From a virus (Duplodnaviria > Heunggongvirae > Uroviricota > Caudoviricetes): a stretch of 10,339 nt of DNA. The position numbers and the translations under genes are program-made. Shown here in pieces: positions 1 through 10,339 of this stretch (positions are counted from its first letter, which is position 1; each line of letters begins with the position of its first letter). The notes beneath the pieces were generated by a model. That model saw only the letters and a program-made list of their open reading frames with translations, did no database searches and was not told the origin of the DNA. The stretch spans positions 1-10,339 of the IMG/VR virus record IMGVR_UViG_2671180710_000010; one strand, written 5' to 3'.

Positions 1-232
1 TAGCGCCCGCTGACCGCTGCCAGCCTTTCAGCATGTAAATCGCATCCACACAACGAATCATTGCCATGCAAATATCCATGTAGTGCGGCTGTGTCAGCCC
101 GTCCGGAAGTACTGCCGGGTTTAAGACGGTATGCCCTTCCCGTTTCAGTTCCTCTTCCGCCTTGTGAAACGCCTCACGGTTGAAATTTTCATATCCCGTC
201 ATTGGACCGGCAATATAAACTCTCACCCTCAC
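1..232 (-). CDS. DUF4406-like (nucleoside 2-deoxyribosyltransferase-like) protein, N-terminal part only; gene runs off the window start
   Basis: Minus-strand translation from GTG at 232 gives MRVRVYIAGPMTGYENFNREAFHKAEEELKREGHTVLNPAVLPDGLTQPHYMDICMAMIRCVDAIYMLKGWQRSAGA with no stop to position 1. AGGAGG SD (245..240) lies 7 nt upstream and the start overlaps the stop of the upstream gene. The YIAGPMTG...NF..F motif matches my recollection of DUF4406 proteins. Start could instead be GTG 226 or ATG 202. Confidence 0.5.
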   Translation of the reverse strand, partial: MRVRVYIAGPMTGYENFNREAFHKAEEELKREGHTVLNPAVLPDGLTQPHYMDICMAMIRCVDAIYMLKGWQRSAGA

Positions 233-621
233 TCCATCACCTCCTGAAAGTTTCCCCGATAGAACGCCAGCACACGCTGCATAACTTCGCTCTGGCGGCA
301 CTCACGACAAATTATGTTCTGCCGTCTGTTGTAACGACGTATTTCTCCGTCAGGTAACTTTCGAATCAGTGTCGGGTCAGCAGCCTTCTCCGGTGTCTTA
401 CGCCATACGCGATACGCCTGCTCTGATGGAAATACCCCGCAATCAGAGAGCCAGACATCACCACTGACCGCAAGCGCACCAGATAAACGACGAATAGCGG
501 TCTTACTGACACCCGTTTTATCTGCCAGTTGTCGAAAAGTTTCTCGTCCGCTCAGGCGCACGAATTCCACAATGCGCGCCTTCACTTCTTCCCGCTCTTC
601 TGGTGTAAATACTTTTGCCAT
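229..621 (-). CDS. Hypothetical phage protein with a predicted helix-turn-helix (about 130 aa)
   Basis: Listed ORF 229..636 begins at a TTG. ATG at 621 has a GGAGG SD 5 nt upstream, giving MAKVFTPEEREEV.... HTH-like segment TFRQLADKTGVSKTAIRRL; C-terminal CRECRQ. Sits 15 nt after the upstream gene in the same operon. Confidence 0.55.
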   Translation of the reverse strand: MAKVFTPEEREEVKARIVEFVRLSGRETFRQLADKTGVSKTAIRRLSGALAVSGDVWLSDCGVFPSEQAYRVWRKTPEKAADPTLIRKLPDGEIRRYNRRQNIICRECRQSEVMQRVLAFYRGNFQEVME

Positions 622-636
622 AAGCGCCTCCGGCAA

Positions 637-1398
637 TCACTTTTCCGATACAACACGGCGGGAAGAATCAGTAATCTGTCGAACAATATCCCGGTGCTTG
701 TTCAGCTCCCGCAGCGCGGCGCAGACTCGCTCCCACTTCTGAACATCACTTTTCGCCCTGCGCAGCGCCAGGTTTGCCCTGCGCAGGGACGGAAAAATCA
801 GCTCATCTGCTTGCGTTTCGGTAAACGATGGCAACGACTGCACAATGTCCGCCACAGTTTCTGTTTTAATTTCTTCCTGTGTTGCGGCTTCCCGGACTGG
901 TAACGCAGCACCTGCTGGCTGAGGAAAGGCCTTACCATCACTTTCCGTTACCGATGCTGCTTTCGGCTCTGCTGGTAAATTATCGCCCGGCATGCAGTAA
1001 CGAAATTTACCGTTCTGATTAACGCGAATCAGACGACCTTTACTGATTGCCATTGCCAGCTTTGAAGCCACTTTGCGTGATGTGATGCCGAAAAACGTAG
1101 CCAGTTCATCCGCCGTTTGTGGGCCACGTTGTTCAATCGTCGCAGTTAAATCGCTCTCCGAAATTTTAGCGACTGTTGCCGTGGTGGTTTCTTCCGACAG
1201 TTCTGCCGGCGCTGGCTGTTCCCGCTGAACGTTGTTATAAGCCACACGCCAGGTGTACGCGCTTTTATCAACGAAACCAGCCTTTTTCAGTTCCCATAGT
1301 TCGTTCAGCACTTCTTCACGACTGATATCAAGTCGCGCAGCCAGTTCTACCGACGTGGCTTTTCCCATCGCTTTCAGTGCGTCAAAAACAGTCTCCAT
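637..1398 (-). CDS. Phage protein with two predicted winged-helix segments (DUF1627-like, recalled family)
   Basis: 253-aa ORF. ATG at 1398 has GGAGG 6 nt upstream. Two similar HTH-like segments ([26 protein letters not shown] and [29 protein letters not shown]). Family name is from memory only. Confidence 0.6.
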
Positions 1399-1430
1399 AA
1401 ATTTCCTCCCGGTAAAAATTACTTCTCAAC

Positions 1431-2096
1431 TCAAACAAACCCAGCCGCTTTCCGGCGTTCATATTCCTGTTTCAGCAACTCAATTGGCGTTGGCCCCGAC
1501 GGGCGTTTGGGTGCCGCCAGTTGTCGCCGGACTGGCGGAACGCTCAGGCCGTTACTAACATGCTTTGCCCATTTCGCCAGCTGCCGTTCTGCAAGCCGTT
1601 TTAATTCCCCTTCGGTCATCTGGCGCTCAATCCCCTTTGAACGCATCTCGAGGCAAATGTGATACAGCACAGGCTGAGACCACGGGTACTTATCACTTCC
1701 GTCATATCGCCAGGACTCATTGCGCCAGCGGCGGTACTCCTCCATCACAGCATCCACCGTCAGACCGAATGGATTGGCTCCGCTTTCCGAAATCAGTGCC
1801 ACAAACTCAGCCAGGTCCGGAGGCCATGTTTCACCCGCCCGGCAGCGGTCCATGCACTGGCGGCAGACCTGTCGGATTTGCTGCTCAGTCATCGCGCCAA
1901 TCTGTGCAATCCAGAGCTTCGAAGGTGCGGCCCCGTTCTTCTGGGTCCAGCGGTTCGAATAAACCTCCCCCATGAGTTCCCACAGCTTCCAGACCGTTTC
2001 CGTCGCTGATAAATCCGTTTTCACGTTCCCACTGCTCACGTGCTGCCCGAATTTCCTGAACTGCCCGTGATGCGGTGCCACCTGGTGCTGCTGCAT
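1431..2096 (-). CDS. Replication protein P-like (DnaB helicase loader family)
   Basis: 221-aa ORF. C-terminal region (..EYRRWRNESWRYDGSDKYPWSQPVLYHICLEMRSKG..TEGELKRLAERQL..) aligns by eye with the recalled lambda P C-terminus (..YEYCRKRGLYPDAESYPWKSNAHYWLV..TDAELRRKAADEL..). ATG 2096 has AGGGGG 6 nt upstream but overlaps the O-like gene by 212 nt; alternative starts at 1973 or 1892. Confidence 0.65.
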   Translation of the reverse strand: MQQHQVAPHHGQFRKFGQHVSSGNVKTDLSATETVWKLWELMGEVYSNRWTQKNGAAPSKLWIAQIGAMTEQQIRQVCRQCMDRCRAGETWPPDLAEFVALISESGANPFGLTVDAVMEEYRRWRNESWRYDGSDKYPWSQPVLYHICLEMRSKGIERQMTEGELKRLAERQLAKWAKHVSNGLSVPPVRRQLAAPKRPSGPTPIELLKQEYERRKAAGFV

Positions 2097-2925
2097 GGTT
2101 TACCCCCTTGCTGACTGGTTTAACCTGCGCCCTGACGTGATTTACGTGACGGGCGAATTTCTGCTCCCACTGAATCTGCGTAAACACTTTCCCCTCCGCT
2201 GCCCAGTAGTCCCGGAAGGCGGCAAGTTCAGCAGGTGTAAATTCTGTCTCCGGCAAAGCCATCCCCCACAACGCAGCCCGTCGTCGAAAATCCCGTGACG
2301 GATACCAGCTATCGGTCATCGGAAATTTTCCGATGGGTTCGCTCAGGCCATCCAGGAATACAAGGGGTGCTGCCTGTAACGACAAAACTTCCTGCTCACT
2401 GGTCGGAGCACTCTCGCGTGCGTTATGTGTGGGGTTTAGATCTTTGGGTTCCTTTGGGTTCCGTGATCCGTTTTTGGGTGTCTTTGATGGAAAATTTGGG
2501 TGTCTTTGGTTATTTTCCATGCAGCTAAGAGTTCCGTTTTTGGGTCTGTTTTGTGCTGAAACATAACCATTTTCGGTACTGTTTTTATTAACAGCACCAA
2601 TTTTACCCACCTTTAAAGACTCCCGTTTTTGGGTGTATTCAGGCTCGGCAACACTTTCTTCTACACCGATAAGTCGGTACACCACAATTTGCTTTGTTCT
2701 GCCTTTTCTCTCACCGGTATCAACAATTAACCCAATCTCCATCAGGTGTCGTAAGCTGTCCTGCACAGTCTTTTTGTTCAGTTCCGTTACTTCTGCCAGT
2801 GCAGATACAGACGGGTATGCACACAAATCGGCACCGCACATATCAGCAAGCCAAGTCAATACAGACTTACTGGATGAACTGCCGGTTTTCACCTTTTTAG
2901 CCCATCGTAGTGCATCGATACTCAT
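1885..2925 (-). CDS. Replication initiator (lambda O position): N-terminal HTH domain, central low-complexity linker encoded by the iterons, C-terminal DnaT-like region
   Basis: ORF is open 1885..3000. ATG at 2925 (MSIDALRWAKKVK...) has AGGGG 5 nt upstream and overlaps the upstream gene end by 29 nt. N-terminal HTH (LAEVTELNKKTVQDSLRHLMEIGLI), Pro/Lys/Asn-rich linker, C-terminal FTPAELAAFRDYWAAEGKVFTQIQWEQKFARHV. Position between the CII-position gene and the P-like gene. Confidence 0.65.
   Translation of the reverse strand: MSIDALRWAKKVKTGSSSSKSVLTWLADMCGADLCAYPSVSALAEVTELNKKTVQDSLRHLMEIGLIVDTGERKGRTKQIVVYRLIGVEESVAEPEYTQKRESLKVGKIGAVNKNSTENGYVSAQNRPKNGTLSCMENNQRHPNFPSKTPKNGSRNPKEPKDLNPTHNARESAPTSEQEVLSLQAAPLVFLDGLSEPIGKFPMTDSWYPSRDFRRRAALWGMALPETEFTPAELAAFRDYWAAEGKVFTQIQWEQKFARHVNHVRAQVKPVSKGVNHAAAPGGTASRAVQEIRAAREQWERENGFISDGNGLEAVGTHGGGLFEPLDPEERGRTFEALDCTDWRDD
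2441..2640. repeat. Iteron cluster plus AT-rich tract inside the O-like gene (putative replication origin)
   Basis: Same-orientation copies with a TTTGGGT core: CCGTTTTTGGGTGTCTTTG (2468-2486), AAAATTTGGGTGTCTTTGG (2491-2509), CCGTTTTTGGGTCTGTTTTG (2534-2553), CCGTTTTTGGGTGTATTC (2623-2640), plus tandem CTTTGGGTTCC x2 (2441-2462). AT-rich stretch 2554-2620. Same arrangement as ori-lambda inside gene O. Confidence 0.5.
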
Positions 2926-3448
2926 ACGAACCCCTGGCAGACATTTGTTTATCTGCAAAGTAATATTGATATTGCTGACGATACGCATGCTTGAAAGCAA
3001 TAGCTTTTTCTATAAGCTCGTCAGTCTCACGTTCCACAACAGATGGATCCGCAAAAAGCAGCCCGGACTCCACCACATCGCCATATTCTTTGTTTAACCC
3101 GGCGATCATGTACGTAATGCTTTTTCCGTCAGTAATTTCACAATACAACCTGAAATCGCTGATCCGGATAGCCTCCATAATTGCCGGAATCAGCGCCGTG
3201 AATTTTTCCCGCTTATCCCTGGTGTCGATAGCTTTCCAGCGTTCGAATATCTTCACCCGGTTAACGCCCAGCGCCCGTTGATCAACCTCGCCATCATTAA
3301 ACGTGACGCGTTGAACATCGATGTTCGGGCGTTCTTTCAGAGCCCAGAATGCTTCCGTGATTAATATCGTCGCCTGCTCCTGTGTCATTCCTGGTCGGCA
3401 TACCCAGGCATCCAGAGCCTCACAAACCTGTTCAGGGGTGATTTTCAT
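2897..3448 (-). CDS. YdaT-like regulator in the CII position (183 aa)
   Basis: ATG at 3448 overlaps the end of the cro-like gene by 17 nt. Motif TRDKREKFTALIPAIMEAI resembles the REK..LIPAI segment I recall in Rac YdaT. Position immediately downstream of cro-like and upstream of the replication genes. Confidence 0.45.
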   Translation of the reverse strand: MKITPEQVCEALDAWVCRPGMTQEQATILITEAFWALKERPNIDVQRVTFNDGEVDQRALGVNRVKIFERWKAIDTRDKREKFTALIPAIMEAIRISDFRLYCEITDGKSITYMIAGLNKEYGDVVESGLLFADPSVVERETDELIEKAIAFKHAYRQQYQYYFADKQMSARGSYEYRCTTMG

Positions 3449-3659
3449 TGTTCAACCGCCCCGCCCGCTTCGTCTTACGATATTCGTCATAAACTTTGGG
3501 ATCATACTGAAGCTCACCGCCAGATGCCTCCTGTAGACGCATCGCGCGACCTTCAGGAACCAGTTTCCCCCATGCAGCAACGCTTGCCAGCCTAACTCCT
3601 GCGGCATTGGCAAGCTTTGTTTTGCTGCCAAAAAACGCTATAGCATCAATTTTCAACAT
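3432..3659 (-). CDS. dicC: Cro-like repressor DicC
   Basis: 75 aa (MLKIDAIAFFGSKTKLANAAGVRLASVAAWGKLVPEGRAMRLQEASGGELQYDPKVYDEY...). AAGGAG SD 6 nt upstream of the ATG. Divergent from the dicA-like gene across a 76-bp operator region. Matches recalled DicC/YdaS-Cro family proteins. Confidence 0.8.
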   Translation of the reverse strand: MLKIDAIAFFGSKTKLANAAGVRLASVAAWGKLVPEGRAMRLQEASGGELQYDPKVYDEYRKTKRAGRLNNENHP

Positions 3660-3735
3660 ATCGAACTCCTTAGATTTTCCTAAGGAAACTAGATCGTAGA
3701 GAAACCTAAGTCAAGAAAAATTAGAATTACCTAAT
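3660..3735. promoter_or_regulatory. Divergent promoter/operator region between dicC and dicA
   Basis: Inverted repeat CCTTAG-N6-CTAAGG (3668-3685). AACCTAAG (3703-3710) overlaps a minus-strand -35 TTGACT (rc of 3709-3714). Plus-strand -10 TAGAAT (3722-3727) sits 8 nt before the dicA ATG, which has no SD. Confidence 0.6.
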
Positions 3736-4143
3736 ATGAAAAACGAAACCTTCGGTGCTCGCCTCTTATACAGGCGTAAAAAATTAAAACTGTCTCAGGC
3801 CGCATTAGGTAAGCTGGTCAAAGTGGCTCACGTAACAATTTCTCAATGGGAAAGAGATGAAACACAGCCAGCGGGGAAGAGATTATTCGCACTGAGCCAG
3901 GCGCTTCAGTGCTCGCCGACTTGGCTTCTTTTTGGAGATGAAGATAAGCAACCAGGCGAACCGATCCCAGATAATCAGCCAGTTAATCTGACAGAAGATC
4001 AAAAAGAGTTGCTTCAACTGTTCGACGCACTGCCTGAGTCAGAGCAAAAGGCTCTGTTGTCAGAGATGCGTGCTCGAGTTGAGAATTTCAACAAACTTTT
4101 TGAAGAACTACTCAAAGCTCGCAAAAGAAGCGCAAATAAATAA
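3736..4143 (+). CDS. dicA: Immunity repressor DicA (XRE-family HTH)
   Basis: 135 aa. N-terminal HTH (LSQAALGKLVKVAHVTISQWERDE). Motifs FALSQALQCSPTWLLFGDEDKQP and EMRARVENFNKLFEELLKARKR match my recollection of E. coli K-12 DicA, also 135 aa. Confidence 0.85.
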   Translation: MKNETFGARLLYRRKKLKLSQAALGKLVKVAHVTISQWERDETQPAGKRLFALSQALQCSPTWLLFGDEDKQPGEPIPDNQPVNLTEDQKELLQLFDALPESEQKALLSEMRARVENFNKLFEELLKARKRSANK

Positions 4144-4214
4144 CCCCCCCTTTTTTCGCCACTCTCTGTAATAAAAATCACAAACTTTCAAATGCTTGTG
4201 TTTTTTACATCAAA

Positions 4215-4271
4215 AAACTTAGGTTTTTCTACACAAAAAGCTTGACCACAATTCTTAGGTTATTCTAAATT
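4215..4271 (+). promoter_or_regulatory. Candidate promoter of the downstream ydfA-dicF-dicB operon with overlapping operator-like repeats
   Basis: -35 TTGACC (4242-4247), 18-nt spacer, -10 TAAATT (4266-4271). Two direct CTTAGGTT copies (4218-4225, 4254-4261), the reverse complement of AACCTAAG in the dicC-dicA intergenic region. Confidence 0.4.
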
Positions 4272-4347
4272 CTACTCATCAAGACACCGCACGGTGTTCT
4301 CAGCAAACAGTTCCGCTACCCTGGCGTTAAGGGGAAATGAGGTCAGC

Positions 4348-4500
4348 ATGGATACTATCGATCTTGGCAACAACGAATCTCTGGTATGCGGCGTGTTTCC
4401 CAACCAGGACGGCACGTTTACCGCGATGACGTATACCAAAAGTAAAAAGTTTAAAACCGAAGCTGGCGCGCGTCGCTGGTTAGCCAGAAACACTAACTGA
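4348..4500 (+). CDS. ydfA: Small protein YdfA-like (50 aa)
   Basis: ATG 4348 has GAGG 5 nt upstream; MDTIDLGNNESLVCGVFPNQDGTFTAMTYTKSKKFKTEAGARRWLARNTN. The listed ORF starts at GTG 4294 without an SD. Same position and size as K-12 Qin ydfA (51 aa, recalled). Confidence 0.55.
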   Translation: MDTIDLGNNESLVCGVFPNQDGTFTAMTYTKSKKFKTEAGARRWLARNTN

Positions 4501-4750
4501 TTAGCACCAGTAAAAACAGGTTGCCACTGGTTAATTTACCCTGAAAAGTCAGGGCATAACACGAAAGCGCACGGAGAAGCTCGTCTCTCTGTACTTTGTC
4601 GTTAAATTTAATTCGACCGTGCGCTTCCGGTTGTGGCAATCCGCGAAATGGCGCGGCGGTAAGTATGGCGGGGTTATTCCTTCCCCTTGAGGACACCGGG
4701 TTGTCAGGCTGACCATACGCTTAAGTGACAGCCCCGCCACAATATCCATG

Positions 4751-4803
4751 TGTAGTCTTTGGTGGCATCAGTTCTACTCCGTGACTGCTCTGCCACCCTT
4801 TTT
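4751..4803 (+). ncRNA. dicF: DicF small RNA (ftsZ-targeting sRNA of dicB operons)
   Basis: TTTGGTGGCATCAGTTCTACTCCGTGACTGCTCTGCCACCCTTTTT closely matches recalled K-12 DicF (..GGCGGUAUCAGUUUUACUCCGUGACUGCUCUGCCGCCCUUUUU). Ends in an intrinsic terminator. 5' end approximate. Confidence 0.7.
4761..4803 (+). terminator. Intrinsic terminator forming the DicF 3' end
   Basis: Perfect 7-bp stem GGTGGCA (4761-4767) / TGCCACC (4791-4797) with inner CAGT/ACTG pairing, followed by TTTTT (4799-4803). Confidence 0.65.
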
Positions 4804-5010
4804 AAAGTGAATTTTGTGATGCGGTGAATGCGGCTAAGCGCACGCGGAACAGTTAAAACCGTAAAGTGGTCTTTTACGGGGCGTAACGGGCATACTTCTG
4901 TATTCCGGCGTTAATTGTTAACTGGTTAACGTCACCTGGAGGCACCAGGCACTGCATCAACAAAGTTCACTTCGGTGATGAAAGGTAAGAGAAAATGTTG
5001 AATGTAGCTA

Positions 5011-5039
5011 TTGAAAACCAGAACGGGTGGAATTATAGT
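5011..5039 (+). promoter_or_regulatory. Near-consensus sigma70 promoter upstream of rha
   Basis: -35 TTGAAA (5011-5016), 17-nt spacer, -10 TATAGT (5034-5039). Predicted start near 5046. Confidence 0.4.
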
Positions 5040-5094
5040 GCACCTGCACCTCATAAAACGGGTGCCGGGATTGCTACCCCGATGTTCATCATGG

Positions 5095-5127
5095 CGCATA
5101 ACCGCGCTCAGGCGGTTTTTTTATGCG
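5095..5127 (+). terminator. Intrinsic terminator-like hairpin with U-tract
   Basis: Stem AACCGC (5100-5105) / GCGGTT (5112-5117), 6-nt loop, T-run 5116-5122. An alternative outer stem CGCATAA (5095-5101) / TTATGCG (5121-5127) is also possible. About 75 nt downstream of the predicted start. Confidence 0.5.
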
Positions 5128-5288
5128 TAATGCACAGCCACATTCAGATTATGGTGGGGCGTGCAGGGCAGCCGCAAGGCTGGCCGGGTTCCATGATGAC
5201 CGGTTGTAGCAACCCTGTGCGTCTCACCACCCATGAGATTGCTACCTCCGGTGGTGAGTTAATGAAATTCATCATGGAGGCTGCCATC

Positions 5289-5846
5289 ATGGCTACTATC
5301 CCTGCCCTTTCTCACCCTGAAATTACTATCGCCAATGGGCGTGCTGTTACATCCTCTTTAGCTGTTGCCGAGTATTTCCGGAAACCACACAAAGATGTAC
5401 TGGCAAAAATTTCACGTCTAGACTGTTCAGCGGAATTCACTGAGCGAAATTTTTCGCCCAGTGAATATACCGACTCAACCGGGCGCAAACTCCCTATGTA
5501 CCAAATCACCAAAAACGGCTTCGTTTTCCTGGTGATGGGCTTCACCGGCAAAAAAGCCGCTGCATTTAAAGAAGCCTACATCGCTGAGTTCGATCGCATG
5601 GAGAAAGAACTGCGCCAGAATAACGCCCCGTCTCCCGACAAAATGATTCACGGGGACGGACGTACCCTGGTTATCCGTCTCGACGAACACGGCAATATCA
5701 AATTCACTGAAACCGTTCCGGACGGCGCAATGGTCTGCACCCTGGATACCTTCCAGTTTTATCTGGAAAAACAAGGCTGGACTCTTGTAAACCGGAGCGC
5801 AATTAAAAATATGACTGTGGAGCAATTACTAAAAATTCATTGTTGA
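5289..5846 (+). CDS. rha: Phage regulatory protein Rha family
   Basis: ATG 5289 has GGAGG 8 nt upstream. N-terminus MATIPALSHPEITIANGRAVTSSLAVAEYFRKPHKDVLAKI fits the Rha N-terminal domain pattern. The listed ORF extends in frame to 4995, but that extension contains the promoter and terminator above and has atypical composition. Confidence 0.75.
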   Translation: MATIPALSHPEITIANGRAVTSSLAVAEYFRKPHKDVLAKISRLDCSAEFTERNFSPSEYTDSTGRKLPMYQITKNGFVFLVMGFTGKKAAAFKEAYIAEFDRMEKELRQNNAPSPDKMIHGDGRTLVIRLDEHGNIKFTETVPDGAMVCTLDTFQFYLEKQGWTLVNRSAIKNMTVEQLLKIHC

Positions 5847-5856
5847 GGACGCGATA

Positions 5857-6045
5857 ATGGAAACGTTATTACCAAACGTTAATACGTCTGAAGGGTGTTT
5901 TGATATTGGTGTTCTGCTCAGTAACCGGGAGTTTACTGAAGATGCCATTAAGATGAGAAAATATGAGCCTTATCTTCTCAATGATAATTCCATACTCTCC
6001 AGAATTGCCCTTCTTGAACTTGGTATTTTCGGGGGGCAGCAGTGA
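5857..6045 (+). CDS. dicB: Cell-division inhibitor DicB
   Basis: 62 aa, METLLPNVNTSEGCFDIGVLLSNREFTEDAIKMRK..., matching recalled K-12 DicB (MKTLLPNVNTSEGCFEIGV...; 62 aa). GAGGA SD 7 nt upstream. Downstream of dicF. Confidence 0.8.
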   Translation: METLLPNVNTSEGCFDIGVLLSNREFTEDAIKMRKYEPYLLNDNSILSRIALLELGIFGGQQ

Positions 6046-6230
6046 CTTCTGCATTTGCACTGGTAATGACTGTTTTTCTTATAACGGGTGAATCACAGAA
6101 TGTGATTACCGGAATTTATGCCAGTAAAGAATCCTGCCTCCAGGCAAGAGACGAGCAAAAAATTTCTGGTGAATGCCTCCCGTTAAAAAAAGTATCGCTG
6201 TACCTGAATAACGAAATACCGGCTGGATAA
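6042..6230 (+). CDS. ydfD: Small membrane protein, YdfD-like (62 aa)
   Basis: GTG start overlaps the dicB stop (GTGA), with a G-run 5 nt upstream. N-terminal hydrophobic segment AFALVMTVFLITG. Position matches ydfD after dicB in K-12 Qin (recalled). Confidence 0.55.
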   Translation: MTSAFALVMTVFLITGESQNVITGIYASKESCLQARDEQKISGECLPLKKVSLYLNNEIPAG

Positions 6231-6322
6231 CCCACCAGCCATATTAACGCCATACAAACGGATTAAAAATGCCAGCAATGGCAGGGATTCGCACAACCTT
6301 AAAATAGTAATGAGGTTTATCA

Positions 6323-8866
6323 ATGAGCACTGATAAAGAAACTTTTGCACTATATTGCGAAGCAAAAAATGACAAGGTCAGAAAACGCCTTGGGATTAAA
6401 GGTGGTTTTTACTGGACTACAGCAAAAAAATTATCTGTTGCCATCTCCCGCTGCATTACCGCAATGGATGATAATGATTATGACGAGGACGACTTTAAAA
6501 AACCTGTTCGCGTCCATTTACCCGTTGTGAATGACCTTCCTCCAGAAGGCGTGTTTGATACTGAATTCTGCAACCGTTACGAAAAAGGCGGGGAAGATGG
6601 TATCACAATGATATTTATAGCTCCTTCCCCTTCAGCTCAGGACAAACCTGCCAGCACTGACAATACCAGCGGCGAAGCTGTTACAGGTGTCAGCCGTGAC
6701 TGCGATGAACAAAGTGACTCTCAGACAGAGAACGCAGATAAAAGCGAATCCCCGGACAGCAACGATGACTGCCCTGAATGTGAAATCCCCGTCTCCACCC
6801 TGAGTCTTACCCATCGCTTCCTGCACCTCTACTTCTTTGGTCAGGAGTTCGACGAGAAATACAAACATCACGCCACACCAGAACAACGCAAGGACGTGAT
6901 CCGCATCGAAATGGATATGGAAGATGGAAACATACAGAGCCTGCTTACTGCAGTACGTTCGCATCCTGAGCTGGATAAGCTGACAAACCATCATCTTGGA
7001 AGACTGGCGCATTCGGTGGAAAAGGCATTCACTCACGCAACAACACGCCGTATCAGCCCGGCAGAATTCGACAAGTTCATTTCCACCTGGATGAAGACTG
7101 ACTACCTTGATCAGGGGCTGTTGACAAAAGAGTGGGCAAAGGGAAATTGCGTATCTGAAATCAATCGCACCCCGTCCGGCGCTAATGCTGGCGGAGGAAT
7201 TCTTACCGATCGCGGTGAAGGTTTTGTCCACGATGATGCGTCAGTGGAACGTGACGTTGCCGCTGGCGTTCTGGCCCGTTCAATGGACATCGATATTTAC
7301 AATCCACATCCGGCACACGCCAAACGCATTGAAGAAATCGTTTCAGAGAATAAGCCGCCCTTTTCTGTTTTTCGTGACAAACTCATCGCCATGCCTGGTC
7401 ACCTGGATTATTCCCGCGCGATAGTAGTTGCGTCCGTGAAAGAAGCACCAATTGGTATCGAGGCTACTCCCCACCGTGTTACCGAATATCTGAACAAAGT
7501 ACTGACCGAAACCGACCATGCCAACCCTGATCCAGAAATCGTGGATATTGCCTGCGGTCGCTCCTCTGCTCCAATGCCGCAGCGTGTAACAAAAGAAGGA
7601 AAACAGGATGATGAAGAAAAACCGCAGCCAACTGGCGCAATGGCAGATGAACAGGCAACGACTGAAGCAGTGGAACCGGATACAACTGAACATAATCAGG
7701 ACACGCAGTCGATGGATGCTCAGCCACAGATAAATTCTGTTGATGCGAAATATCAGAAACTGCGTGCAGAACTCCATGAAGCCAGGAAAAACATTCCACC
7801 CAAAAATCCTGTCGATGCAGATAAATTACTGGCTGCTTCTCACGGAGAATTTGTTGAAGGGATTAGCGACCCGAATGATCCGAAATGGGTGAAGGGGATT
7901 GAAACCCGCGATTCTGTGAACCAGAACCAGCACGAATCGGAACAAAACGACCAGAAAGCGGAACAAAACAGCCCAAATGCGTTACAAAACGAGCCAGAAA
8001 CGAAACAGCCTGAACCAGAAGAGCAACAAGAACCGGAAAAAGTCTGCACCGCCTGCGGTCAGACCGGCGACGGCAACTGTCCTGACTGTGGCGCGGTAAT
8101 GGGCGACGCAACATACCAGGAAACATTCAACGAAGAAAGCCAGGATGAAGCCCGGGAGAAAGATCCAGAGGAAATGGAAAGTGCCGTATACCCGAACAAG
8201 GAGTGCACCGAAGGCGATCAACATGCCAATGGCAATAATGAAACAGGCGAGACAGCAAATCCCTTAATTAAGGTGAACGGTCATCACGAAAGCACATCCA
8301 CCAGCAGGTTGTGGCACCATCTGATGATTGACCTTGAAACAATGGGCAAAAATCCTGATGCCCCAATAAACGCTCTGGCCGGTAAGTTTTTTGATCCGGC
8401 AACCGGAGAGATGGGGCCAGAATTCAGCAAAACTATCGATCTGGAAACCGCAGGCGGAGTCATCGATCGGGACACCATTAAGTGGTGGCTGAAACAGTCA
8501 CGGGAAGCACAATCAGCCATTCTGACCGATGAAATCCCGTTGGATGACGCACTGTTGCAATTACGGGAATTTATCGACGAAAACTCCGGTGAATTTTTTG
8601 TTCAGGTCTGGGGAAATGGAGCCAACTTCGACAACGTGATTTTACGCCGTTCATATGAACGGCAGGAGATCCCCTGCCCGTGGCGTTACACCAATGATCG
8701 TGATGTAAGAACGATTGTTGCCCTGGGGCTGGTGATGGATTTCGATGCTCGAAGTGTCATCACATTTGAGGGTGAACGCCATAATGCCCTGCACGATGCG
8801 CGTTACCAGGCAAAATACGTTTCAGCTATCTGGCAAAAACTGTTCCCGAATCAGGCTGATTTTTAA
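6323..8866 (+). CDS. Large multidomain protein with C-terminal DEDDh (DnaQ-like) 3'-5' exonuclease domain, in the recE/ydfE position
   Basis: 847-aa ORF with GAGG SD 7 nt upstream. C-terminal exonuclease motifs: MIDLETMG (D670, E672; nt 8324-8347), GANFDNVIL (D770; nt 8630-8632), HNALHDA (H820, D825; nt 8780-8797). Cys clusters CPEC (aa 150-153) and C-x2-C-x7-C-x2-C (aa 575-589, nt 8045-8089). Long acidic/Gln-rich low-complexity linkers. Confidence 0.8.
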
Positions 8867-8932
8867 TGTTCAACCCATATCGCCGCCCACCAGCTATAGT
8901 GGCGGCGGTCATGCTGTAAGGCACGTGACCAC

Positions 8933-9184
8933 ATGTACGAATTAACTCTATCGCCAGCAGAAATTCAAGAGATCACGAGATACGAACGGTATACAAAACA
9001 GCAACAACAGTTAAGGTTGCACGGTATCCCATTTGTACCCGGTCCTAAAAACGAACCAATAGTTCTTCGCAGTGATGTCCCGCGCGGACTGACTGCGATA
9101 CCGAAAGTATCTGAACTGGTTTCTGCTGACCCCGATTTTGAGGCGCTGAACAATGGGAAGACCAAGAAAAAACAAAAAAGATAA
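8933..9184 (+). CDS. xis: Excisionase (Xis-like)
   Basis: 83 aa; N-terminus MYELTLSPAE and basic C-terminus NGKTKKKQKR resemble lambda Xis (MYLTLQEW... / ..RNGKKAKS, recalled). 3' end overlaps the int start by 32 nt, as in lambda. Confidence 0.6.
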   Translation: MYELTLSPAEIQEITRYERYTKQQQQLRLHGIPFVPGPKNEPIVLRSDVPRGLTAIPKVSELVSADPDFEALNNGKTKKKQKR

Positions 9185-10172
9185 TGCACTACCGCCACGT
9201 GTTAGATCGAATGGTTACAGTTACGTATGGAAACCCGAAGGAAGCACAAAAACTATAGGGCTCGGAAGAGTGCGGGAAACCACCATAGCTAAAGTCTGGC
9301 AGAATTATGAACTGGAAAAAGCAAAACGCCACAACATAATGACCGTCGCTAAATTATGGCACATGTTTATGGATTCCCCCGCATTTACAGAACTGGCCCC
9401 CAGAACCCAAAAAGATTATCGGCAACATCAGAGGGCGTTGCTGGCAGTCTTCGGAAAAGTACTGGCTGATAATGTAAAAATTGAGCAGGTAAGAATTTTC
9501 ATGGATAAACGGGGGATTGAGAGCAAGACCCAGGCAAACCATGAACTGGCAAGTCTCAGTCGTGTATACGGGTGGGGATATGAACGTGGATATGTGAAGA
9601 ATAACCCATGCAAAGGAGTCAGGAAATTTACGCTTAAAGCCCGCACTGTTTACATCACAGATGAACAGTATGCGGCGATATATGCGGAAGCAATACCACA
9701 GTTACGCATTGCAATGGAGATATCCTATCTTTGTGCGGCAAGACTCGGTGATGTGCTCGAGCTGAAATGGCAGGATATTATGGATAAAGGGATCTACATT
9801 GAGCAAAACAAGACCGGCACCAAACAAATCAAGGAATGGTCTCCACGATTACGAACCGCGATCCAGTTAGCCAGAAATGTATCTTCAGGCACATGTGAAT
9901 ATGTGATCAACACAACCAAGGGCGGGAAGGTCATAGCTAAAACGCTAAACAACTGGTGGAACCAGGCTAAACACGCAGCCGAGAAAAAATCCGGCGTCCC
10001 GTTTGGGTGCAATTTCCATGACATAAAAGCCAAAGGGATATCAGATTACGAAGGAAGCAGTCGCGACAAACAGATTTTCAGTGGACATAAAACAGAAAAT
10101 CAGGTGTTGATTTATGATCGTAAAACAAAAATCACGCCGACACTGGATTTGCCACTTGTGGTCAGCAAGTAG
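9153..10172 (+). CDS. int: Tyrosine integrase (lambda Int family)
   Basis: 339 aa. N-terminus MGRPRKNKKDNALPPRVRSNGYSYVWKPEGSTKTIGLGR resembles the lambda Int arm-binding N-terminus. C-terminal ..FHDIKAKGISDYEGSSRDKQIFSGHKTENQVLIYDRK aligns with lambda HELRSLSARLYEKQISDKFAQHLLGHKSDTMASQYRDDRG (recalled), including the catalytic Tyr. Lies next to the att core. Confidence 0.9.
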   Translation: MGRPRKNKKDNALPPRVRSNGYSYVWKPEGSTKTIGLGRVRETTIAKVWQNYELEKAKRHNIMTVAKLWHMFMDSPAFTELAPRTQKDYRQHQRALLAVFGKVLADNVKIEQVRIFMDKRGIESKTQANHELASLSRVYGWGYERGYVKNNPCKGVRKFTLKARTVYITDEQYAAIYAEAIPQLRIAMEISYLCAARLGDVLELKWQDIMDKGIYIEQNKTGTKQIKEWSPRLRTAIQLARNVSSGTCEYVINTTKGGKVIAKTLNNWWNQAKHAAEKKSGVPFGCNFHDIKAKGISDYEGSSRDKQIFSGHKTENQVLIYDRKTKITPTLDLPLVVSK

Positions 10173-10311
10173 GCAACTCAGGAAATTTTCTGGCAAAAAA
10201 AGACTTGGTATACTAACTCTGAAAGCTCCCTAACAGCCTGATTTTTCTAGGTGTTAAGTTTGGTTAATTTTTCAGCAGTTTTTTGTATTGCATTGATTTT
10301 TATTTGTTTTT

Positions 10312-10339
10312 CATCGGTCTTGAAAACCGGCGACCCGAA
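10312..10339 (+). other. Attachment-site core: 3' portion of a tRNA-Ser(UGA)-like sequence, truncated by the window end
   Basis: CATCGGTCTTGAAAACCGGCGACCCGAA forms an anticodon stem-loop (stem TCGGT/ACCGG, loop CTTGAAA, anticodon TGA). It matches my recollection of E. coli tRNA-Ser(UGA) from the anticodon stem onward (..CACCGGUCUUGAAAACCGGCGACCCGAAAGGG..). Upstream sequence is unrelated to a tRNA 5' half. Confidence 0.45.

Follow-up and report, generated by a model that had tools for sequence, protein, structure and literature searches.

A lambdoid prophage exonuclease predicted to join a RecE-type N-terminal region to a DEDDh nuclease domain

A 10,339-nucleotide stretch of DNA from a tailed-phage record (positions 1 to 10,339 of IMG/VR virus record IMGVR_UViG_2671180710_000010; hereafter the window) carries a lambdoid prophage gene whose 847-residue product is very probably a modular exonuclease, in which the N-terminal region of RecE is joined to a DEDDh exonuclease domain. 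RecE (exonuclease VIII of the Rac prophage) has a PD-(D/E)XK nuclease domain of 5'-3' polarity, whereas the 847-residue protein has a DEDDh domain of the 3'-5' class instead. The explanation that best accommodates the observations as a whole, to which we assign a probability of about 0.45, is that the protein, encoded in the early-left operon, is a DNA-end exonuclease of 3'-5' polarity and would act alongside host RecBCD and RecA. A literature search found no experimental study of the fused protein, in keeping with an earlier preliminary description of the window, made from the sequence without database searches, in which the full-length protein was thought to be uncharacterised.

The usual account of phage recombination pairs a 5'-3' exonuclease with an annealase, whereas the fused form described here comes without an annealase; in complete Escherichia coli genomes the DEDDh nuclease domain (head) is detected more often than RecE's own. 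The function of the 3'-5' version bears on how lambdoid phages that are rich in Chi sites and lack an annealase use host RecBCD. It bears as well on what the RecE N-terminus contributes to linear-linear recombineering, full-length RecE being known to enhance linear-linear recombination (reviewed in PMC11611040). Both questions are testable with the viable phage Tritos, which carries the same C-terminal module, and with established assays, and the modular head swap on a RecE-type platform is a reasonable experimental target.

Architecture and relatives of the exonuclease

BLASTP against K-12 RecE aligned residues 58-649 of the protein with RecE residues 50-591 at 56% identity overall, and at much higher identity from about residue 260 onward. 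The aligned part, in which the N-terminal 590 or so residues of RecE are represented, takes in the SDPNDPKW motif, the C-x2-C-x7-C-x2-C motif and the acidic linkers. When the N-terminal part was compared with the RecE families, residues 57-196 matched Pfam PF06630 (Exonuc_VIII; E = 5.4e-12), and residues 1-649 matched the NCBIfam RecE equivalog model NF007259 over model positions 1-602 of 877, with a score (863.5) below the cut-off of 1269. The PD-(D/E)XK nuclease of RecE was not detected: there was no match to PF12684, no BLASTP similarity past RecE residue 591, and the DNA homology to recE found with blastn stopped at gene nucleotide 1946, which lies in codon 649. The RecE nuclease domain has been placed at residues 564-866 (PMC11611040). 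Given that residues 58-649 are homologous to RecE and that the similarity ends just before the RecE nuclease domain, the protein is, judged by its sequence, a RecE N-terminal region whose nuclease head has been exchanged near the start of the nuclease domain. The preliminary description had set the protein apart from RecE, a separation that its first 650 or so residues contradict, as they are homologous to the non-nuclease region of RecE by PF06630, NF007259, BLASTP and blastn alike. This region has no known function in RecE, and likewise in the 847-residue protein.

The C-terminal head matched Pfam PF16473 (Rv2179c-like) over the entire model (positions 1-177 of 177) at residues 665-837, with E = 4.2e-60 and 202.9 bits against a cut-off of 27. 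Its closest Protein Data Bank (PDB) match by sequence was T4 DexA (exonuclease A; PDB 8KEL and 8KEN), at E = 3.4e-5 for 8KEL and with the catalytic residues aligned: D670/E672, D770 and H820/D825 correspond to DexA D7/E9, D119 and H186/D191 in the motifs Exo I, II and III, respectively. A Foldseek search with an AlphaFold2 (AF2) model of residues 560-847 placed DexA first (E = 2.3e-10), followed by RNase T, oligoribonuclease and Cap18, all at a probability of 1.00. The mean predicted local distance difference test score (pLDDT) of the DEDDh domain ranged from about 64 to 95 per 10-residue block and exceeded 80 in most blocks, and the modelled head has an RNase H-like fold. Pfam, PDB and Foldseek thus agree with the proposal, made earlier from the motifs, that the C-terminus holds a complete DEDDh 3'-5' set, of the opposite polarity class and of a fold other than that of the RecE nuclease. 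The head shares the DEDDh fold and catalytic residues with DexA, although identity is only about 22-28%, and DexA is a stand-alone protein of 227 residues from a virulent phage, with extra loops and with roles in the salvage of DNA from the host and in the homing of introns. Rv2179c of Mycobacterium tuberculosis, the founder of PF16473 and the source of its name, belongs to the same Pfam family as the head; it is a small stand-alone exoribonuclease, and was neither among the PDB sequence matches nor among the top 50 fold matches of the head.

When DEDDh relatives were aligned, D670, H820 and D825 were invariant, and E672 and D770 were nearly so. The D-x-E motif was kept in 117 of 120 close homologues and H-x4-D in 119 of them. 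In one DEDDh-headed relative, P0152 (752 residues), the Exo I Glu is replaced by Lys and the Exo II Asp by Ala, and this head may be catalytically dead.

The open reading frame (ORF) and every residue that the preliminary description had named were found in place, including D670/E672 in MIDLETMG, D770, and H820/D825 in HNALHDA. The length of 847 residues is shared by four database homologues (P0001-P0004). The low-complexity stretches that had been pointed out are indeed acidic and rich in Gln and Pro, and are predicted by the AF2 model to be disordered. An internal start at M668, which would yield a stand-alone head, was considered and rejected, as M668 is not preceded by a Shine-Dalgarno sequence.

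Both of the cysteine clusters noted earlier exist, CPEC at residues 150-153 and C-x2-C-x7-C-x2-C at C575, C578, C586 and C589, but they fared differently. The second was kept in all 120 close homologues, although its match to the Pfam DZR family was weak (E = 0.22) and its AF2 modelling was of low confidence. The CPEC cluster is incidental and lineage-specific: a C-x2-C...H-x3-H arrangement occurs in only 20 of the 120, and these cysteines are rare in distant homologues, so that a zinc finger of the form C-x2-C-x10-H-x3-H was dismissed as a feature of the family. The part of the protein that is conserved most widely among family members lies at about residues 280-435 (nucleotides 7160-7627, approximately), with the motifs SGANAGGG-x-TDR and PGxLDYSRA, and the helical domain there was modelled confidently. 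A fold search found no informative structural relative of the N-terminal region or of its helical domain. Residues 472-530 form the start of a linker module that is common to RecE and the exonuclease of phage Tritos.

A search of residues 1-656 against 1.84 billion representative proteins yielded 222 clusters at E<=0.001, of which the best 150 were typed by local profiles. Among the typed relatives of at least 450 residues, 19 had the RecE PD-(D/E)XK head and 14 a DEDDh head, 2 were fused to RecT sequence, and 46 were without a recognisable head. Some proteins thus bear the N-terminal platform together with a PD-(D/E)XK head and others bear it with none that can be recognised, which suggests that the platform is a module in its own right. 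Some of the headless relatives have unassigned tails of 250-400 residues, and this group is probably equivalent to the nuclease-less 'RecE-2' proteins of PMC12315714. In five members of the family (P0144, P0172, P0192, P0207 and P0246) the tails are 350-400 residues long and gave no nuclease or other Pfam match; the gene for P0144 is followed by a Sipho_Gp157 gene (locus L017, 8442-8996). In P0124 (703 residues) the RecE N-terminal region through the zinc ribbon is joined straight to RecT residues 83-269, which looks like a deletion fusing recE with recT.

Selection on the exonuclease gene is purifying, the ratio of nonsynonymous to synonymous substitution rates (dN/dS) being about 0.1 for folded parts of the protein and 0.2-0.8 for its linkers. 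Compared with the allele of E. coli UTAK-6, synonymous divergence (dS) was between approximately 0 and 0.02 in every segment of codons 1-530, and reached about 0.65 between the zinc ribbon and the gene's end; the allele is itself recombinant, with an intragenic breakpoint near codon 530 (around window position 7900). The last 555 bases of the gene are 100% identical to E. coli STEC435.

Of 5426 complete E. coli genomes, 4192 (77%; median, two copies) contained DNA resembling the DEDDh head, a count that takes in stand-alone and YdfE-type copies, and 1743 contained DNA for the RecE PD-(D/E)XK domain. A protein search gave at least 8000 matches, the best 120 of which all had both PF06630 and PF16473; these are named 'exonuclease', '3'-5' exoribonuclease' or, misleadingly, 'exodeoxyribonuclease VIII' in the databases. 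PHROGs also has families for the exonuclease. The protein type is thus very common in E. coli prophages and already catalogued, and the gene in the window is an ordinary member of a large annotated family.

Gene order, phage relatives and Chi sites

The recE gene of Rac lies on the early-left side between the immunity region and xis-int, as does the gene for the 847-residue protein. In K-12 recE is followed by recT, whereas the exonuclease gene here has no recT. The preliminary description had remarked both on the missing recombinase partner and on xis following directly, and each remark was borne out. No Pfam family of annealases, single-strand-binding proteins (SSB) or anti-RecBCD proteins was matched among the scanned ORFs of the window, tblastn with K-12 RecT found no recT-like neighbour in the window or anything similar in five related loci, and in a complete related prophage of 45 kb no annealase, SSB or anti-RecBCD gene is annotated, only RusA. 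The ORF directly after the exonuclease gene has a DUF4224 domain and is followed by the integrase gene. In three distant DEDDh-headed relatives (N-terminal identity about 30-35%) Exc and Int are directly next where the contig extends far enough, and no annealase adjoined any of four distant fused relatives. At locus L008, a 271-residue gene (phrog_3657; 8565-9380) stands in the place of recT after a PD-(D/E)XK-headed RecE relative; tblastn showed no resemblance of it to RecT, and it may encode an annealase that has gone unrecognised.

Phage Tritos and related E. coli prophages have the gene order of the window as well, and K-12 Qin shares the dicB-ydfD order. A survey of lambdoid Rec modules (Genome Res 2025, PMC12315714) described DnaQ-like 3'-5' nucleases inside such modules and other DnaQ genes near int. 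Its 'Tritos' type has a nuclease, lacks annealase, SSB and anti-RecBCD genes, and is rich in Chi sites, the majority of them on the late-gene ('top') strand. The same survey proposed that a large class of Chi-rich phages without a Rec module is RecBCD-dependent, and reported that growth of one phage without a recognised Rec module, LLS, is aided by RecBCD (PMC12315714). The gene order here is that of the 'nuclease-only' Tritos type, which belongs among lambdoid phages that seem to depend on RecBCD and RecA of the host.

In Tritos the exonuclease gene (TRITO_27; locus L014, 26518-28989, 823 residues) occupies the same slot, in the order CI, ydfA/B/C-like genes, DicF, dicB, ydfD, exonuclease, xis and int, and neither an annealase nor an anti-RecBCD gene is annotated. 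Its last 350 or so residues, comprising the linker, the zinc ribbon and the DEDDh head, are in common with the 847-residue protein; in contrast, its N-terminal 470 or so residues are of the YdfE type and had no BLASTP relation to the RecE-type N-terminus here. In K-12 Qin the slot holds ydfE (locus L004, 5079-5999), a pseudogene cut by IS2E, which from its sequence is the truncated N-terminus of a Tritos-type exonuclease. The earlier statement that Qin carries only a truncated gene at this position is therefore correct as to the truncation and the slot, but what remains of YdfE has a different N-terminus and no similarity to the 847-residue protein (BLASTP E = 7), and the view that it is a truncated copy of that protein was rejected for the remaining part.

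Stand-alone DnaQ-like exonucleases of the same Pfam family and 51-56% identical to the head, but without the N-terminal region, occur in phage LLS (gene 34), the P22-like phage g341c (gene 29) and vB_EcoM-720R4. The LLS gene lies directly before xis-int, the same position as here. Gene 29 of g341c (51% identity) lies between erf/ssb and abc2 and is thus within a full Rec module, unlike the gene in the window.

Three Chi sites (GCTGGTGG) were found in the window as against 0.34 expected, a number reached in 1 of 200 shuffles. All three are on the minus strand, the strand of the late genes in this phage, of which the 10-kb window is only a part, and two of them closely flank the exonuclease gene. 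The late-gene strand has 9 Chi sites versus 2 on the other strand in the related prophage, and again 9 versus 2 in Tritos.

Possible functions

The following sequence of events would account for the architecture and the gene order. Upon derepression, the exonuclease would be made together with DicB and YdfD, given that its gene is on their strand, lies downstream of the repressor gene and has no strong promoter directly before it; the one promoter-like match there (6278-6305) is weak, at 9 of 12, and shuffled sequences contained more promoter-like sites than the scan detected. The head would remove nucleotides from DNA 3' ends in a metal-dependent reaction, a reading based on DexA as the closest relative to have been characterised and on the ties of both halves of the protein to recombination genes, RecE being the nuclease of the Rac recombination module and a stand-alone relative of the head being encoded in the g341c Rec module. 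The RecE-type region may tether the protein at DNA ends or to a partner protein. With 3' tails or flaps on the phage DNA trimmed, the recombination needed for growth would be done by host RecBCD, Chi and RecA and not by a phage annealase. RecBCD requires ends that are close to blunt, and it has been proposed that these are prepared by single-strand exonucleases of the host. Conditioning of 3' ends alongside RecBCD, Chi and RecA is put forward tentatively as the specific role. The preliminary description had favoured defence, anti-defence or host takeover rather than recombination; the context runs contrary to this, with RecE in the Rac module, the g341c homologue beside erf, ssb and abc2, and the Tritos class of phages, and it favours DNA-end metabolism or recombination at least as much as defence.

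Several points weigh against a DNA-end exonuclease working with RecBCD. The substrate (DNA or RNA), the polarity and any joint action with RecBCD are all inferred. The usual effect of DnaQ-type 3'-5' exonucleases on homologous recombination is inhibitory, and DnaQ genes near int were not counted as Rec-module genes in the survey (PMC12315714). The DEDDh gene is also present in Chi-poor phages with an anti-RecBCD gene, such as g341c, and is therefore not specific to a RecBCD-dependent lifestyle. A targeting role of the N-terminal region is a guess, since it has no informative structural relative. Finally, defence is the reported role of EcD, a DexA homologue that E. coli encodes as a stand-alone protein (PMC12153337).

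EcD ('HREX') is the starting point for the main rival explanation, in which the protein is a prophage defence or superinfection-exclusion nuclease that degrades modified phage DNA, for example DNA containing 5-hydroxymethylcytosine (5hmC), with the RecE-type region as sensor or tether. We consider this unlikely, though it competes more strongly than the other alternatives. EcD, like the head, belongs to the DEDDh exonucleases of the DexA family and is encoded in genomes of E. coli; it digests T4 (5hmC) DNA and not unmodified DNA, and it protects against T4 (PMC12153337). DexA is also the closest solved relative of the head, and of the two DexA residues implicated in 5hmC recognition (PMC12153337), D169 aligns with D806. 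However, D806 is not kept in the more distant fused relatives, and the other residue, W152, aligns with T790, W787 being three residues upstream. The tetramer-forming Asp of DexA (D90), which is Ala in EcD, is retained here as D742; DexA S87 aligns with P739. EcD is moreover a different, stand-alone protein: its cloning primers encode a start of MIDTET... and an end of ...TIPETY. Our comparison with EcD covered these termini, which differ, and the reported 5hmC residues, which are matched in part. A 20-mer from the EcD reverse primer had one apparently chance match each in the viral contigs and in the genome contigs.

The gene order and distribution can be read in favour of defence as well, since the exonuclease gene comes after dicB, and 77% of complete E. 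coli genomes have the head, frequently several times over. DicB excludes some phages. On the other hand, phages that are viable have this module at this very position, and the exonuclease gene is probably silent in lysogens, given that it has no strong promoter directly upstream, is on the dicB/ydfD strand and lies downstream of the dicA-like repressor gene. No family of PADLOC-DB 2.0 was matched at E<=0.01. It is more doubtful still that the fused protein is a widespread, unrecognised prophage defence in which the RecE-type platform places a DexA-like exonuclease on incoming, for example modified, DNA. The exonuclease domain, in one form or another, occurs in roughly three quarters of the complete E. 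coli genomes, and the 2023 PADLOC catalogue has no model for it.

An RNA exonuclease like Rv2179c, RNase T or oligoribonuclease, trimming or degrading host or phage RNAs during lytic growth, seems improbable. The Pfam family is named for the M. tuberculosis 3'-5' exoribonuclease, RNase T and the oligoribonucleases are the next-best fold matches after DexA, and the operon also encodes the processed small RNA DicF; however, it is the DNA exonuclease DexA that heads both the sequence and the fold matches, the close stand-alone homologues are located among DNA recombination genes, and the N-terminal region is in common with that of the DNA exonuclease RecE.

We regard as similarly improbable a nuclease that counters recombination, repair or defence, removing 3' single-stranded DNA tails or small DNAs and thereby damping RecA loading and the SOS response or destroying DNA-based defence components. 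In its favour, RecE reportedly acts on retron multicopy single-stranded DNA. The inhibition of homologous recombination by DnaQ-type 3'-5' exonucleases noted above (PMC12315714) would fit such an activity, as would the absence of an annealase that could use the resected end. The phage has nevertheless kept oriented Chi sites, arguing that it benefits from RecBCD-RecA recombination.

A functionless mosaic, produced by illegitimate recombination between recE and a DnaQ-like gene, is very improbable in spite of the highly mosaic nature of lambdoid genomes and the recombinant origin of the allele, because intact full-length ORFs are present in many genomes and viable phages, dN/dS is about 0.1 in all folded parts with the catalytic residues and the zinc ribbon kept, and relatives with as little as about 30% N-terminal identity still have this architecture and this position.

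Coordinates and further features of the window

The features of the exonuclease gene and its surroundings are collected in Table 1.

Table 1. Positions of the exonuclease gene, its parts, the Chi sites and the neighbouring genes in the window
Feature	Position	Strand	Basis or remark
Exonuclease ORF	6323..8866	+	ATG start, 847 aa; RecE-type N-terminal region and DEDDh exonuclease
Shine-Dalgarno GAGG	6312..6315	+	7 nt upstream of ATG; direct sequence reading
Small alpha/beta domain, aa 1-100	6323..6622	+	AF2, pLDDT >90; dN/dS 0.09 vs locus L002
Mainly helical domain, aa 150-420	6770..7582	+	Includes the family's most widely conserved core
Two helices and SDPNDPKW, aa 472-530	7736..7912	+	dN/dS 0.06
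Zinc-ribbon-like C-x2-C-x7-C-x2-C, aa 573-592	8039..8098	+	Conserved in K-12 RecE
Head-swap junction, codon 649	8267..8269	+	Last RecE-aligned residue (RecE 591); BLASTP, blastn
DEDDh (DnaQ/DexA/Rv2179c-like) 3'-5' exonuclease domain, aa 665-837	8315..8833	+	Predicted; Pfam, structure, conservation
Chi site (GCTGGTGG)	6232..6239	-	Closely upstream of the exonuclease gene
Chi site (GCTGGTGG)	8298..8305	-	Within the exonuclease ORF
Chi site (GCTGGTGG)	8887..8894	-	Just past the exonuclease stop codon
DUF1627 gene, P-like gene, DnaT-like replication gene, then YdaT, Cro		- (all)	Pfam
dicA-like repressor gene	3736-4143		Pfam
DicF RNA	4747-4798		Rfam
dicB	5857-6045	+	Pfam; upstream of the exonuclease gene
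ydfD-like DUF1482 gene	6042-6230	+	Pfam; upstream of the exonuclease gene
xis-like DUF4224 ORF	8933-9184	+	Pfam; directly downstream of the exonuclease gene
Tyrosine integrase gene	9153-10172	+	After the xis-like ORF

Between DicF and dicB (4747-5846 region) the window has an insert that is present in neither K-12 Qin nor phage Tritos. It contains a 283-residue ORF (4995-5846) with Ash and Rha domains, and both an isrK-like RNA (5046-5122) and a C4 antisense RNA (5147-5234) lie within the 5' part of this ORF. The isrK-like RNA is framed by a 10-of-12 promoter-like site (5011-5039) and a terminator-like hairpin (5100-5117), and the 'Ash' part of the ORF may be an RNA leader rather than coding sequence.

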